Source: Escherichia coli (lineage in GTDB: Bacteria > Pseudomonadota > Gammaproteobacteria > Enterobacterales > Enterobacteriaceae). Taken from it: DNA of 64,000 bases. Below are positions 42,563-48,308 of the stretch, piece after piece; positions within the stretch are counted from its first letter, which is position 1; every line of letters begins with the position of its first letter. Below the pieces are notes generated by a model, which searched no databases, was not told where the DNA came from, and saw only the letters and a list, made by a program, of their open reading frames with translations. The stretch lies in NCBI RefSeq assembly GCF_030384885.1, contig NZ_CP128613.1; one strand, given 5' to 3'. The position numbers and the translations under genes are program-made.

Positions 42563-43189
42563 ATGAACCCGGTTGATCGTCCACTATTAGATATTGGCTT
42601 AACGCGATTAGAATTCTTGCGTATATCAGGAAAAGGCCTTGCTGGTCTAACAATTGCCCCTGCGTTACTGTCACTTTTGGGTTGCAAACAGGAAGATATT
42701 GATAGCGGCACAGTAGGGTTGATAAATACACCCAAAGGGGGGCTGGTGACCCAACGTGCGCGATGCACGGGTTGCCACCGCTGTGAAATCTCTTGTACCA
42801 ACTTCAACGATGGCTCAGTAGGGACATTCTTCTCCCGTATCAAAATCCATCGCAATTATTTCTTTGGCGATAACGGGGTTGGCTCTGGTGGCGGCCTATA
42901 TGGCGATCTCAACTATACCGCGGACACCTGCCGTCAATGCAAAGAACCGCAATGCATGAATGTCTGCCCGATTGGTGCGATTACCTGGCAACAGGAAGAA
43001 GGCTGTATTACCGTCGATCATAAACGTTGTATTGGTTGTAGCGCCTGTACAACGGCATGCCCGTGGATGATGGCCACCGTAAATACCGAAAGTAAAAAAT
43101 CCTCGAAATGTGTGTTATGCGGTGAATGCGCAAACGCCTGCCCAACAGGGGCGTTAAAAATTATCGAGTGGAAAGATATTACTGTGTGA
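42563..43189 (+). CDS. ydhY: 4x[4Fe-4S] ferredoxin-like protein
   Basis: 208-aa ORF with four CxxCxxCxxxCP motifs (CTGCHRCEISC, CRQCKEPQCMNVCP, CIGCSACTTACP, CVLCGECANACP). Confidence 0.9.
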   Translation: MNPVDRPLLDIGLTRLEFLRISGKGLAGLTIAPALLSLLGCKQEDIDSGTVGLINTPKGGLVTQRARCTGCHRCEISCTNFNDGSVGTFFSRIKIHRNYFFGDNGVGSGGGLYGDLNYTADTCRQCKEPQCMNVCPIGAITWQQEEGCITVDHKRCIGCSACTTACPWMMATVNTESKKSSKCVLCGECANACPTGALKIIEWKDITV

Positions 43190-43209
43190 ATCTTGCAAAG
43201 GAAAAAATT

Positions 43210-45312
43210 ATGGCTAACGGTTGGACAGGTAATATATTAAGAGTCAATCTCACGACAGGAAATATTACCCTCGAAGATTCCAGTAAGTTTAAAAGTTTTG
43301 TCGGTGGTATGGGCTTCGGCTACAAAATTATGTATGACGAAGTACCGCCAGGCACGAAACCTTTCGATGAAGCGAATAAATTAGTCTTTGCTACCGGCCC
43401 ATTAACTGGATCTGGTGCCCCCTGCAGTTCTCGCGTAAATATCACCTCACTTTCTACTTTTACCAAAGGAAATTTAGTCGTCGATGCCCATATGGGGGGC
43501 TTTTTTGCAGCGCAAATGAAATTCGCTGGATACGACGTCATTATTATCGAAGGGAAAGCGAAAGCACCGGTATGGCTGAATATTAAAGATGACAAAGTTA
43601 GCCTGGAAAAAGCCGATTTCTTATGGGGAAAAGGGACGCGCGCAACTACGGAAGAGATTTGTCGATTGACCAGCCCTGAAACCTGTGTGGCGGCTATTGG
43701 TCAGGCTGGGGAAAACCTTGTTCCTCTCTCTGGCATGTTGAATAGCCGTAACCACAGCGGTGGTGCGGGAACTGGCGCAATAATGGGTTCGAAAAACCTG
43801 AAAGCGATTGCGGTGGAAGGGACGAAAGGGGTCAACATTGCCGATCGTCAGGAGATGAAGCGTCTCAACGATTACATGATGACCGAGCTTATCGGTGCGA
43901 ATAATAACCATGTCGTGCCAAGTACGCCGCAATCGTGGGCAGAGTACTCAGATCCCAAATCACGTTGGACAGCTCGTAAAGGGCTGTTTTGGGGCGCGGC
44001 AGAAGGCGGTCCGATTGAAACGGGTGAAATTCCGCCAGGTAATCAGAACACGGTCGGCTTTCGTACCTATAAATCCGTTTTTGATTTAGGTCCGGCGGCA
44101 GAGAAATACACAGTAAAAATGAGCGGCTGCCACTCTTGCCCGATCCGTTGTATGACCCAAATGAATATTCCTCGGGTGAAAGAGTTTGGCGTGCCCAGCA
44201 CAGGTGGTAACACTTGTGTTGCAAACTTTGTCCATACCACCATCTTCCCGAACGGTCCGAAAGATTTTGAAGATAAAGACGATGGTCGTGTGATTGGTAA
44301 CCTGGTTGGTTTGAATCTGTTCGATGACTACGGCCTATGGTGTAACTATGGTCAGCTGCATCGCGACTTTACCTATTGTTACAGCAAAGGGGTGTTCAAG
44401 CGTGTTCTGCCTGCTGAAGAGTATGCGGAAATTCGCTGGGATCAACTGGAAGCGGGTGACGTTAACTTCATTAAAGATTTTTACTACCGTCTGGCGCATC
44501 GTGTGGGTGAGCTGAGTCACCTGGCTGATGGTTCATATGCTATCGCAGAACGCTGGAATTTGGGTGAAGAGTACTGGGGCTACGCGAAAAATAAACTCTG
44601 GTCGCCGTTTGGCTATCCAGTTCACCACGCCAATGAAGCGTCAGCGCAGGTCGGCTCCATTGTTAACTGTATGTTCAACCGTGACTGCATGACGCATACC
44701 CATATCAACTTCATTGGTTCCGGTTTGCCATTGAAACTGCAACGTGAAGTGGCGAAAGAGCTTTTTGGTTCTGAAGATGCTTACGATGAAACCAAAAACT
44801 ACACGCCAATCAATGACGCAAAAATTAAATATGCTAAGTGGTCGCTGTTGCGGGTCTGTTTGCATAACGCCGTCACCCTGTGCAACTGGGTCTGGCCAAT
44901 GACCGTTTCGCCGCTGAAAAGCCGTAATTATCGGGGCGATCTGGCGCTTGAAGCCAAATTCTTCAAAGCGATCACTGGCGAAGATATGACTCAGGAAAAA
45001 TTAGATTTAGCTGCAGAGCGTATCTTTACGTTGCATCGCGCCTACACGGTAAAACTGATGAAAACCAAAGATATGCGTAATGAACACGATCTTATCTGTT
45101 CCTGGGTATTCGACAAGGATCCGCAGATCCCGGTCTTTACTGAAGGTACTGACAAAATGGATCGTGACGATATGCATGCTTCGCTCACGATGTTCTACAA
45201 AGAAATGGGCTGGGACCCACAGCTTGGTTGTCCGACCCGCGAAACATTGCAGCGTCTGGGGCTGGAAGATATTGCCGCCGATCTGGCAGCACACAATCTA
45301 CTGCCTGCGTAA
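43210..45312 (+). CDS. ydhV: Aldehyde:ferredoxin oxidoreductase (AOR)-family pterin enzyme
   Basis: 700-aa frame from ATG at 43210 (MANGWTGNILRVNLTTGNI...), AOR N-terminal domain signature; track ORF starts 28 codons upstream inside ydhY. Confidence 0.9.
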   Translation: MANGWTGNILRVNLTTGNITLEDSSKFKSFVGGMGFGYKIMYDEVPPGTKPFDEANKLVFATGPLTGSGAPCSSRVNITSLSTFTKGNLVVDAHMGGFFAAQMKFAGYDVIIIEGKAKAPVWLNIKDDKVSLEKADFLWGKGTRATTEEICRLTSPETCVAAIGQAGENLVPLSGMLNSRNHSGGAGTGAIMGSKNLKAIAVEGTKGVNIADRQEMKRLNDYMMTELIGANNNHVVPSTPQSWAEYSDPKSRWTARKGLFWGAAEGGPIETGEIPPGNQNTVGFRTYKSVFDLGPAAEKYTVKMSGCHSCPIRCMTQMNIPRVKEFGVPSTGGNTCVANFVHTTIFPNGPKDFEDKDDGRVIGNLVGLNLFDDYGLWCNYGQLHRDFTYCYSKGVFKRVLPAEEYAEIRWDQLEAGDVNFIKDFYYRLAHRVGELSHLADGSYAIAERWNLGEEYWGYAKNKLWSPFGYPVHHANEASAQVGSIVNCMFNRDCMTHTHINFIGSGLPLKLQREVAKELFGSEDAYDETKNYTPINDAKIKYAKWSLLRVCLHNAVTLCNWVWPMTVSPLKSRNYRGDLALEAKFFKAITGEDMTQEKLDLAAERIFTLHRAYTVKLMKTKDMRNEHDLICSWVFDKDPQIPVFTEGTDKMDRDDMHASLTMFYKEMGWDPQLGCPTRETLQRLGLEDIAADLAAHNLLPA

Positions 45313-45324
45313 GGAATGGGTGAG

Positions 45325-46707: not shown

Positions 46708-47489
46708 ACCCGTCGCAACATGCTGAACAGTTTCAGAGCCAGTTGGTGAACTATGTGCCACAGTTCACTCCCGAATTTTGGCCGGTGTGGTTGATCATTG
46801 CCGGACTATTGCTGGTTGGGATGTGGTTGGTGCTGGGGCTGCATGCCTTGCTTCGTGCTCGTGGCGTGAAGAAATCAGCCACCGATCATGGTGAGAAGAT
46901 TTATCTTTACAGCAAAGCGGTCAGATTATGGCACTGGTCGAATGCGTTACTCTTTGTATTGTTGCTGGCAAGTGGGCTGATAAATCACTTTGCGCTGGTG
47001 GGAGCAACTGCGGTTAAAAGTCTGGTTGCGGTGCATGAAGTTTGCGGATTTTTGTTACTGGCATGCTGGCTCGGCTTTGTTCTGATCAATGCCGTTGGGG
47101 GTAATGGTCACCACTATCGCATTCGTCGTCAGGGTTGGCTGGAGCGAGCGGCAAAACAAACGCGATTTTATTTGTTTGGCATTATGCAGGGGGAAGAACA
47201 TCCTTTCCCGGCAACAACACAGTCTAAATTTAATCCCTTACAGCAGGTCGCCTATGTTGGTGTCATGTATGGATTGCTGCCGTTGTTACTATTGACGGGG
47301 CTGCTGTGTCTCTATCCGCAAGCCGTGGGAGATGTGTTTCCTGGCGTAAGATACTGGTTATTTCAGGCGCATTTTGCTCTGGCATTTATAAGCCTCTTTT
47401 TTATCTTCGGTCATCTTTATCTTTGCACCACGGGGCGTACGCCACACGAAACCTTTAAAAGCATGGTCGATGGCTATCACCGGCACTAA
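46704..47489 (+). CDS. ydhU: PhsC/cytochrome-b-like integral membrane subunit
   Basis: 261-aa hydrophobic ORF with conserved His residues in TM helices; ATGA overlap with ydhX. Confidence 0.88.
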   Translation: MNPSQHAEQFQSQLVNYVPQFTPEFWPVWLIIAGLLLVGMWLVLGLHALLRARGVKKSATDHGEKIYLYSKAVRLWHWSNALLFVLLLASGLINHFALVGATAVKSLVAVHEVCGFLLLACWLGFVLINAVGGNGHHYRIRRQGWLERAAKQTRFYLFGIMQGEEHPFPATTQSKFNPLQQVAYVGVMYGLLPLLLLTGLLCLYPQAVGDVFPGVRYWLFQAHFALAFISLFFIFGHLYLCTTGRTPHETFKSMVDGYHRH

Positions 47490-47492
47490 CGA

Positions 47493-48308
47493 ATGATCAT
47501 TACACGAGCAGACCTGCGAGAATGGCGTATCGGAGCGGTGATGTATCGCTGGTTCCTGCGCCATTTCCCACGCGGCGGTAGTTATGCCGATATTCATCAT
47601 GCACTTATTGAGGAAGGATATACGGACTGGGCGGAGAGTCTGGTTGAGTATGCGTGGAAAAAATGGCTGGCGGATGAAAACTTCGCGCATCAGGAAGTTT
47701 CTTCTATGCAAAAACTGGCCATAGATCCCGGAGGAGAGAGACCATTTTGCAGTCAGTTTGCCCGCAGCGACGATCATGCTCGCATCGGCTGTTGTGAGGA
47801 TAATGCCAGAATCGCAACTGCTGGGTATGCCGCGCAAATTGCCAGTATGGGTTATAGCGTGCGGATTGGAAGTGTCGGCTTTAACAGTCACATTGGCAGC
47901 TCCGGTGAACGCGCACGGGTTGCTGTAACCGGTAATTCTTCGCGGATAAGCAGCGCTGGAGATAGTAGTCGGATTGCGAATACCGGAATGCGAGTACGCG
48001 TTTGCACATTGGGTGAACGGTGTCATGTCGCCAGTAATGGTGACCTGGTGCAAATCGCCAGCTTTGGCGCAAACGCCAGAATTGCCAACAGCGGCGACAA
48101 TGTACACATCATTGCCAGCGGTGAAGATTCAACAATAGTGAGCACGGGCGTGGTCGACTCAATTATTCTCGGGCCAGGGGGAAGCGCCGCACTGGCATAT
48201 CATGACGGCGAAAGAGTTCGCTTCGCCGTCGCCATTGAAGGTGAAAACAATATTCGAGCCGGAGTCCGCTATCGCCTTAATGAACAGCATCAGTTTGTTG
48301 AGTGCTGA
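47493..48308 (+). CDS. ydhT: Uncharacterised protein with 15 tandem nonapeptide repeats
   Basis: 271-aa ORF; residues about 90-225 form 15 consecutive 9-residue units of pattern x-[R/H/Q]-[I/V]-x-x-x-G-x-x. Confidence 0.88.
   Translation: MIITRADLREWRIGAVMYRWFLRHFPRGGSYADIHHALIEEGYTDWAESLVEYAWKKWLADENFAHQEVSSMQKLAIDPGGERPFCSQFARSDDHARIGCCEDNARIATAGYAAQIASMGYSVRIGSVGFNSHIGSSGERARVAVTGNSSRISSAGDSSRIANTGMRVRVCTLGERCHVASNGDLVQIASFGANARIANSGDNVHIIASGEDSTIVSTGVVDSIILGPGGSAALAYHDGERVRFAVAIEGENNIRAGVRYRLNEQHQFVEC

Follow-up and report, generated by a model that had tools for sequence, protein, structure and literature searches.

We analysed a 64,000-nucleotide stretch of Escherichia coli DNA (contig NZ_CP128613.1; "the window" below), in which six co-directional open reading frames (ORFs) on the + strand fill positions 42563–48308. 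These are real genes and make up the ydhYVWXUT operon of E. coli (Table 1). The operon and its open substrate question are already well known and are not a discovery of this work. Our principal observation is a modest one that was not found in the literature searched: a twin-arginine translocation (Tat) signal appears to have been handed over from one ferredoxin of the system, YdhY, to another, YdhX. We assign a probability of about 50% to the reading that the catalytic subunit YdhV and its partner YdhY form a quinone-linked, periplasm-facing enzyme that is exported piggy-back on YdhX, with YdhW as its escort.

The ydhYVWXUT locus and the catalytic subunit YdhV

The gene starts used here are RefSeq-supported. 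A mechanical ORF list extends ydhV, ydhW and ydhX further 5′, and its extension of ydhX is not conserved among orthologues. The intergenic spacing is 20 nt between ydhY and ydhV, 12 nt between ydhV and ydhW, 63 nt between ydhW and ydhX and 3 nt between ydhU and ydhT, while ydhX and ydhU overlap by 4 nt. In strain 2013C-4282, which is 99.9% identical, the region is annotated as ydhY, ydhV, ydhW, ydhX, phsC (= ydhU) and ydhT, flanked by fumD on one side and by convergent ydhS on the other. NCBIfam equivalog models match all of the products above cut-off except YdhX. This annotation and these models bear out the original prediction, which had named the locus ydhYVWXUT from its sequence. A megablast search with positions 41500–49000 matched the region in 5425/5426 complete E. 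coli genomes; in 5405 the match spans at least 80% of the query. Relative to E. albertii, the ratio of nonsynonymous to synonymous substitution (dN/dS) is 0.018–0.085 for ydhV, ydhW, ydhX, ydhU and ydhT, values that mark them as genuine genes kept by purifying selection.

Table 1. Positions of the ydh genes, export signals and control elements in the window
Feature	Positions	Strand	Description
terminator-like hairpin after fumD (ydhZ)	42112–42140	+	12-bp stem, then T-rich tail; upstream boundary of the ydh unit
Fur-box-like sequence	42294–42312	+	tcaaatgataataaatatc; in AT-rich control region; 14/19 match to GATAATGATAATCATTATC
FNR box	42348–42361	+	TTGATAACGATCAA; perfect consensus TTGAT-N4-ATCAA
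ydhY	42563–43189	+	208-aa ferredoxin-like WorS subunit; NCBIfam PRK09898, 431.9 bits
YdhY Tat-type signal	42563–42685	+	residues 1–41; T14-R15-L16-E-F-L-R, then lipobox LLSLLG-C41
ydhV	43210–45312	+	700-aa AOR/WOR catalytic subunit (WorL, Class V, clade 41); NCBIfam PRK09849, 1370.7 bits
ydhW	45325–45975	+	216-aa acidic protein, isoelectric point (pI) 4.3; universal Y-V partner
ydhX	46039–46707	+	222-aa 4x[4Fe-4S] ferredoxin, predicted Tat export; NrfC/PhsB/DsrO/TtrB type
YdhX signal	46039–46119	+	residues 1–27; MSFTRRKFVLGMGTVIFFTGSASSLLA; SFTRRKFV conserved in orthologues
ydhU	46704–47489	+	261-aa cytochrome b with five transmembrane (TM) segments, PhsC/FdnI/HyaC type; NCBIfam PRK15006, 456.5 bits
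ydhT	47493–48308	+	271-aa protein without signal peptide; helical N-terminal domain and beta-solenoid; Enterobacterales only

YdhV contains the Pfam domains AFOR_N (residues 7–205, 2.5e-67) and AFOR_C (residues 270–685, 6.6e-48), in agreement with its earlier assignment to the aldehyde ferredoxin oxidoreductase (AOR) family. Its nearest solved relatives in the Protein Data Bank (PDB) are AOR, FOR, BamB and WOR5, and it is the only AOR/WOR-family enzyme of E. coli. The active site was compared across 80 sequences of the AOR family that came from the loci described below, 67 of them clade-41-like and 13 outgroup. The [4Fe-4S] ligands Cys307, Cys310, Cys314 and Cys558 are invariant in all 80 sequences, outgroup included. 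Cys336 (codon 44215–44217) is conserved in 67/67 clade-41-like sequences, whereas only 1/13 of the outgroup has Cys at this position; His94, His472, His473 and Asn490 are further clade-specific invariants. Cys336 has been described as an extra metal ligand in an enzyme that is sister to BamB and lacks the second shell of the aldehyde-oxidising AORs (PMC12096430). The absence of the second shell rests on that paper; our phmmer alignment to PDB sequences covered only the N- and C-terminal parts of YdhV. Aldehyde-oxidising AORs in the strict sense combine this second shell with a metal that has no protein ligand, and YdhV shows neither property. The invariant Cys336 and the missing second shell thus make aldehydes unlikely substrates, and the Cys336 pattern indicates that "aldehyde ferredoxin oxidoreductase", as RefSeq names YdhV, denotes the family without describing a supported function.

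Two comparisons place the enzyme further. YdhV shares the fold family, the [4Fe-4S] Cys motif and a nucleotide-free bis-pterin with the AOR (1AOR) and FOR (1B25) of Pyrococcus furiosus, whereas it differs from AOR sensu stricto in its added Cys336 ligand, in having molybdenum (Mo) instead of tungsten (W), in its Tat-linked membrane context and in that no aldehyde activity has been reported. BamB, the class II benzoyl-CoA reductase of the sister clade, is likewise an AOR-family protein with a Cys metal ligand and no aldehyde-type second shell. However, BamB-I is a cytoplasmic, electron-bifurcating W enzyme, whereas Ydh lacks BamC-I partners, contains Mo and belongs to a family that appears Tat-exported and quinone-linked. 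The gene neighbourhood is also not that of BamB-I: ydhV is accompanied by the genes for YdhY, YdhW, YdhX, YdhU and YdhT, or by tat, fdhD and moeA genes. A CoA thioester substrate in the periplasm is implausible.

According to the literature, YdhV binds bis-Mo-molybdopterin and is the founding enzyme with this cofactor. Recombinant YdhV prefers Mo over W (Reschke et al. 2019, as reported by the citing papers PMC13328260 and PMC9103625), so the Mo-versus-W analysis once proposed as a check had, by these accounts, already been made. A June 2026 classification places YdhV and YdhY in Class V, clade 41, of the WOR family (PMC13328260), with the E. coli operon as a named example of the class. Class V loci encode WorL together with WorS and one or more further subunits, and the E. 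coli ydh locus holds all of these. The class is regarded as membrane-associated and periplasm-oriented, since its WorS bears a Tat signal, a TM segment or both; no member has been natively purified, and none has an assigned activity or role (PMC13328260). With the partially purified, related Class V enzyme CsWOR41L, 46 aldehydes gave no activity (PMC13328260). This result, taken with Cys336 and the absent second shell, leaves the aldehyde-centred substrate screen that had been suggested poorly motivated. As of 2022 the substrate of YdhV was unidentified, recombinant YdhV being inactive with every substrate tried (PMC9103625), and no function assigned to it was found in the literature up to June 2026. 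The original view that the module has no known substrate therefore stands. The same cannot be said of the accompanying remark that AOR-family enzymes are rare outside archaea and strict anaerobes: the WOR family has more than 4,000 members, Class V makes up more than 10% of them, and E. coli dominates the gut counts (PMC13328260). In a human gut protein catalogue Class V accounts for ~72% of WOR sequences, a figure inflated by E. coli (PMC13328260).

Electron-transfer subunits and the hand-over of the export signal

YdhY has 18 Cys and four CxxCxxCxxxC-type (4Fe-4S) motifs. Its gene adjoins ydhV in about 60 loci, and it is the obligate four-cluster partner of YdhV. YdhX has 16 Cys; its best NCBIfam match is NrfC (5.9e-74, below cut-off), followed by DsrO, TtrB and HybA, and it also resembles PhsB and HmcB. 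The only significant Pfam match of YdhU is Ni_hydr_CYTB (PF01292, 6.9e-31), and the NrfD domain (PF03916) was not found by the same search. YdhU scores above the cut-off of the NCBIfam model "thiosulfate reductase cytochrome B subunit". Five hydrophobic segments were identified, and nine homologues without exception share His77, His111, His223 and His237, the last two being 14 residues apart in the last helix. We take this four-His pattern to be the di-haem ligand pattern of FdnI and HyaC. Judged by these features, YdhU is not an NrfD protein and is probably a PhsC/FdnI-type di-haem cytochrome b, which retains the PhsC half of its earlier description as PhsC/NrfD-like and discards the other.

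The N-terminus of YdhY retains a Tat-type signal and a lipobox, with only the second arginine of the twin-arginine (RR) motif replaced. The motif T/S-R-R-x-F-L-K is present in 54/54 complete non-enterobacterial YdhY orthologues, many of which also have a lipobox, whereas all eight enterobacterial loci read T/S-R-L-(E/D)-F-L-R. A wider search gave a clean division: every YdhY at least 61% identical to that of E. coli lacks the second Arg, and every YdhY at most 57% identical has RR. The replacement is Leu (RL) in Enterobacterales, including Edwardsiella and Symbiopectobacterium, Gln (RQ) in Telmatospirillum and several metagenomic lineages, and Lys (RK) in two clusters. This drift among three residues indicates that the position has been released from constraint. 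The surrounding peptide has not diverged in the same way, as residues 16–45 are 0.88–0.92 identical across enterobacterial genera compared to 0.82 for the whole protein, and the lipobox Cys is invariant. A hydropathy scan of YdhY found no segment reaching 1.6 over 19 residues. No mention of the second-Arg loss was found in the literature searched; PMC13328260, the only paper found to mention both YdhY and the twin arginine, does not note it. The original prediction had made YdhY cytoplasmic, which conflicts with the periplasm-facing complex that it proposed at the same time.

YdhX presents the opposite picture. Its predicted Tat signal combines the S/T-R-R-x-F-L-K motif with an h-region of moderate hydrophobicity and a cleavage site of the AxA type, and the RR is kept in all orthologues seen. 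The signal is only 0.53–0.60 identical across enterobacterial genera compared to 0.74 for the whole protein. YdhX with this signal has been listed as a predicted Tat substrate of E. coli (PMC7549933).

The distribution of the two signals was examined in ydh-type loci (written below by the last letters of the gene names). A scan with an 8-sequence YdhV alignment, taking one genome per species, gave 79 loci, whose gene content was determined by phmmer searches of the six E. coli Ydh proteins against the locus ORFs. Y-V-W is the conserved core in about 45–55 loci and was found in Bacillota, Spirochaetota, Coriobacteriia, Desulfobacterota, Chloroflexota and Shewanella. The X-U pair is limited to the E. 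coli-type subclade, and X, U and T occur together in Enterobacterales only. X (with RR) and U directly follow W in 12/12 loci whose YdhY is of the RL, RQ or RK type and in none of the RR loci. The four non-enterobacterial RQ/RK contigs that were inspected have the order Y-V-W-X-U and lack ydhT, and their X has a canonical RR; the inspected RR-type contigs have no X-U pair. The Cetobacterium somerae system CsWOR41 (PMC13328260) illustrates the difference. It resembles ydh in its membrane-associated, respiratory-like trio of WorL, WorS and a YdhW-like protein, whereas the E. coli-type subclade adds X and U and has a WorS that lost the twin arginine, and Enterobacterales add T. CsWOR41 also prefers W, in contrast to the Mo preference of E. 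coli Ydh (PMC13328260).

Outside Proteobacteria, Y-V-W is often followed by fdhD, tatA, tatC and moeA-like genes, as confirmed with Pfam. In eight loci of Bacillota and Spirochaetota (L008, L010, L011, L021, L022, L028, L054 and L087), fdhD (sulfurtransferase), tatA, tatC and moeA-like genes come after ydhW, joined in L087 by mobA and mobB. These genes amount to a self-contained export and cofactor-maturation kit, none of which is present at the E. coli locus. Five loci of Syntrophaceae/Nitrospiraceae type have the order Y-U-V-W, with RR and an FdnH-like C-terminal TM tail on Y and the same four His as YdhU in the cytochrome b. Their sequences point to an FdnGHI-like, periplasm-facing layout. 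Taken together, the 54 RR-type YdhY orthologues, the tatA, tatC and fdhD neighbours and the Y-U-V-W layout suggest that a periplasmic orientation is the norm for the family.

Enterobacterial YdhV is 57–58% identical to YdhV of Clostridia compared to 40–46% for Shewanella, and the YdhY N-terminus resembles that of Sedimentibacter, which suggests that Y-V-W was acquired horizontally from a monoderm lineage. In the Coriobacteriia loci L012, L016, L018, L024, L029 and L063, ydhV homologues lie near LuxR-type regulators with multiple TM segments (cluster c12), and two ydhV paralogues share a contig in both L018 and L027, a hint that gut Coriobacteriia have diversified reductases that are induced by their substrates. 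In the metagenomic RR-type loci L084 and L086, proteins with FAD_binding_2 and FMN_bind domains flank Y-V in place of YdhW, YdhX and YdhU, and no ydhW was seen after ydhV in L086. Here the same Y-V catalytic pair is accompanied by another electron-transfer module. Residue 60 of YdhY (42740–42742) is Gly in the window (PKGGLVTQ) and Val (PKGVLVTQ) in every orthologue examined, including those of strain 2013C-4282 and of four other enterobacterial genera; Gly60 could reflect either a substitution particular to this strain or an error in sequencing.

YdhW and YdhT gave nothing significant in Pfam-A and no PDB sequence match, and both evolve much faster than YdhV (mean identity 0.46 and 0.50, respectively, compared to 0.85). 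Both proteins were modelled, structure prediction of the two having been proposed earlier. In the model of YdhW (39-sequence alignment; predicted local distance difference test score, pLDDT, 92), a disordered acidic N-terminus precedes two tandem winged-helix domains that are an internal duplication, the motif DI..G...YxYS...M..YA being present twice. A fold search of AFDB50 returned only uncharacterised proteins of the YdhW family. YdhW lacks a signal peptide, and its 48 homologues are all acidic (pI 4.05–5.37), a charge that makes a DNA-binding regulator unlikely. A chaperone of the TorD/NarJ/DmsD or NapD families was ruled out, as the model is a tandem winged helix and not all-helical. The universal co-occurrence of YdhW with Y-V, its charge, its fast evolution and its lack of a signal peptide suggest that it may escort the basic N-terminal peptide of YdhY. 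YdhT, described earlier as a repeat protein, is modelled (pLDDT 85) as an N-terminal helical domain followed by a beta-solenoid of ~14 nine-residue Gly-periodic repeats, with generic fold matches. Its family is confined to Enterobacterales and missing from other Y-V-W-X-U loci. An unrelated protein, P0316 (401 aa, Pfam PF24703), contains a YdhT-like nine-residue Gly-periodic repeat (38% identity over half of the query), which shows that the solenoid repeat of YdhT occurs outside the ydh context.

Orientation of the complex and competing readings

The loss of the second Arg from YdhY and the presence of the sole canonical RR on YdhX lead us to propose that the folded V-Y module is exported piggy-back on the Tat signal of YdhX. 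The complex would work anaerobically without nitrate as a quinone-linked, periplasm-facing oxidoreductase, with electrons passing from menaquinol through the YdhU haems to YdhX, YdhY, YdhV and finally a low-potential, non-aldehyde substrate. Terminal reduction is the most likely direction, and a PhsC-type anchor would allow electron flow assisted by the proton-motive force. YdhW would bind the basic, conserved peptide at the N-terminus of YdhY and serve in the cytoplasm as an assembly or escort factor, and YdhT would be a later, enterobacteria-specific accessory. This arrangement agrees with the respiratory-like architecture first proposed for the operon. It also resembles FdnGHI and PhsABC in its periplasmic catalytic subunit, four-cluster ferredoxin and four-His di-haem cytochrome b. 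In contrast to those enzymes, the catalytic subunit is of the AOR family and not a Mo-bis(pyranopterin guanine dinucleotide) (Mo-bisPGD) protein, the Tat signal lies on a ferredoxin instead of the catalytic subunit, and E. coli Ydh would have two ferredoxins in series (eight clusters).

Several points weigh against this proposal. The former signal of YdhY, lipobox Cys included, is better conserved than the rest of the protein, and a redundant signal on a hitch-hiker is not expected to be so conserved. In E. coli the lipobox Cys is followed by Lys at +2, which under the Lol rule of this organism would direct YdhY, if lipidated, to the outer membrane. The model explains neither the invariant lipobox with its Lys +2 nor YdhT, and the fold of YdhW is unlike that of any known Tat or redox enzyme maturation protein (REMP) chaperone. 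The loci without the second Arg also form one clade, so that the correlation between RR loss and the X-U pair may go back to one evolutionary event. Recombinant YdhV alone was inactive with all substrates tried (PMC9103625). Because YdhV expressed alone is inactive, the topology question probably has to be answered before an active holoenzyme can be obtained; topology and assembly are directly testable through the working Tat signal carrier and the binding partner of YdhW.

The main rival is an inverted topology, which we consider unlikely although more probable than the other alternatives. Here V-Y would stay in the cytoplasm with a remnant Tat signal that serves YdhW binding or membrane attachment, as in NarG and NarJ, and U-X would form a conduit to the periplasm. 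YdhU would carry electrons between cytoplasmic Y-V and periplasmic YdhX in a manner reminiscent of DsrMKJOP or Hmc, and YdhX does resemble DsrO and HmcB. The second Arg is the critical one of the Tat motif in mutagenesis, and it is lost in the whole subclade. The identity of the YdhY ex-signal, far above that of the YdhX signal, exceeds the constraint on a cleaved signal, and both YdhT and YdhW are cytoplasmic. A remnant signal with a dedicated chaperone has a precedent (reviewed in PMC10609526): NarGHJI also combines a conserved Tat-like peptide, its RR crippled, with a signal-less accessory protein encoded in the operon. The Ydh peptide differs in its position on a ferredoxin and in its lipobox, and YdhW is a tandem winged helix compared to the all-helical NarJ. 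A purely cytoplasmic remnant would, however, have no use for the invariant lipobox Cys. No periplasmic catalytic or cytochrome c partner is encoded for YdhX, and every other family member, including those with a U-type cytochrome, is periplasm-facing. To our knowledge, no cytochrome of the Ni_hydr_CYTB family docks an Fe-S subunit on the cytoplasmic face. The fuller proposal, that a Class V enzyme has turned around and that YdhW, which would mature V-Y, represents a new tandem winged-helix class of signal-peptide chaperones, is a little more doubtful still. If true, the inverted topology would repeat, in the AOR family, the transition from periplasmic to cytoplasmic nitrate reductase.

The remaining alternatives are improbable. 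Following the phsC annotation of ydhU, Ydh could be a reductase of thiosulfate, polysulfide or a similar sulfur compound. YdhU does exceed the thiosulfate reductase cytochrome B cut-off, YdhX is like PhsB, TtrB and DsrO, and a PhsC-type anchor suits low-potential acceptors. The catalytic subunit, however, is of the AOR family and not a PhsA/PsrA-type Mo-bisPGD protein, and the operon contains no PhsA-type gene. The X-U pair joined late, and the older Y-V-W core works in its absence; the anchor is thus uninformative about the substrate. Slightly more improbable is the oxidation, and thereby detoxification, of periplasmic aldehydes, with electrons passing through YdhY, YdhX and YdhU to quinone. 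This would agree with the AFOR domains, with AOR and FOR as the closest structures by sequence and with the RefSeq name, and furfural was among the chemical stresses under which a transposon screen singled out ydhU. That signal, however, was a predicted improved fitness in 10/12 unrelated chemicals and is not aldehyde-specific, and the invariant Cys336, the missing aldehyde second shell, the BamB sister clade, the 46 inactive aldehydes with CsWOR41L and the failure to find a YdhV substrate all argue against it. That the operon is a cryptic relic without current function in E. coli is very improbable: in one study its expression in MG1655 fell below the detection limit, a ydhX mutant had no infection defect and no phenotype or activity has been reported, whereas the operon is present in 5425/5426 genomes, has the low dN/dS given above and is under dedicated, conserved regulation by FNR, Fur and sigma-S. 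No Class V member has a known reaction; identification of the YdhV substrate would extend the known respiratory or detoxification pathways of E. coli, the best-studied bacterium, and of many gut anaerobes.

Control region and minor observations

The FNR box upstream of ydhY is the sole perfect match in the window, where 0.14 would be expected by chance, and agrees with the earlier description of the module as FNR-type. In the literature the ydhYVWXUT promoter is directly activated by FNR from a site at −42.5, which would place the transcription start near 42397 and give a leader of ~166 nt. The perfect box, with the −42.5 spacing taken from the literature, is that of an FNR class II promoter. 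Effects of NarL/NarP and sigma-S have also been reported. The Fur-box-like sequence was scored against GATAATGATAATCATTATC, which we take to be the Fur consensus, and is a candidate Fur site by this match. A Fur chromatin immunoprecipitation (ChIP) peak and Fur regulation of ydhYVWXUT have been reported (PMC7157518). An Rfam search of 41900–48700 (E up to 1) gave no match, and no molybdenum cofactor or other riboswitch was found in the leader, the fold of which is unremarkable (z = −1.7).

At the other end of the operon, ydhT and the convergent ydhS are separated by 5 bp (48308–48314), and a scan for terminator-like hairpins found none between or just past their ends. A GTG-started ORF of 249 aa on the − strand (47358–48107) lies opposite the ydhU end and the greater part of ydhT, and most likely arises as an artefact from the repeats of ydhT, which code for Gly/Ser/Ala-rich sequence. 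Comparably long antisense ORFs were seen over ydhV in high-GC genomes, and neighbourhood cluster c3 was rejected as such an artefact of high-GC ydhV genes. Across 41500–49000 the window is at least 99% identical to only 3/5426 complete E. coli genomes, the others being 95–99% identical, which indicates that, for the ydh locus at least, the source strain comes from a lineage with few sequenced members.

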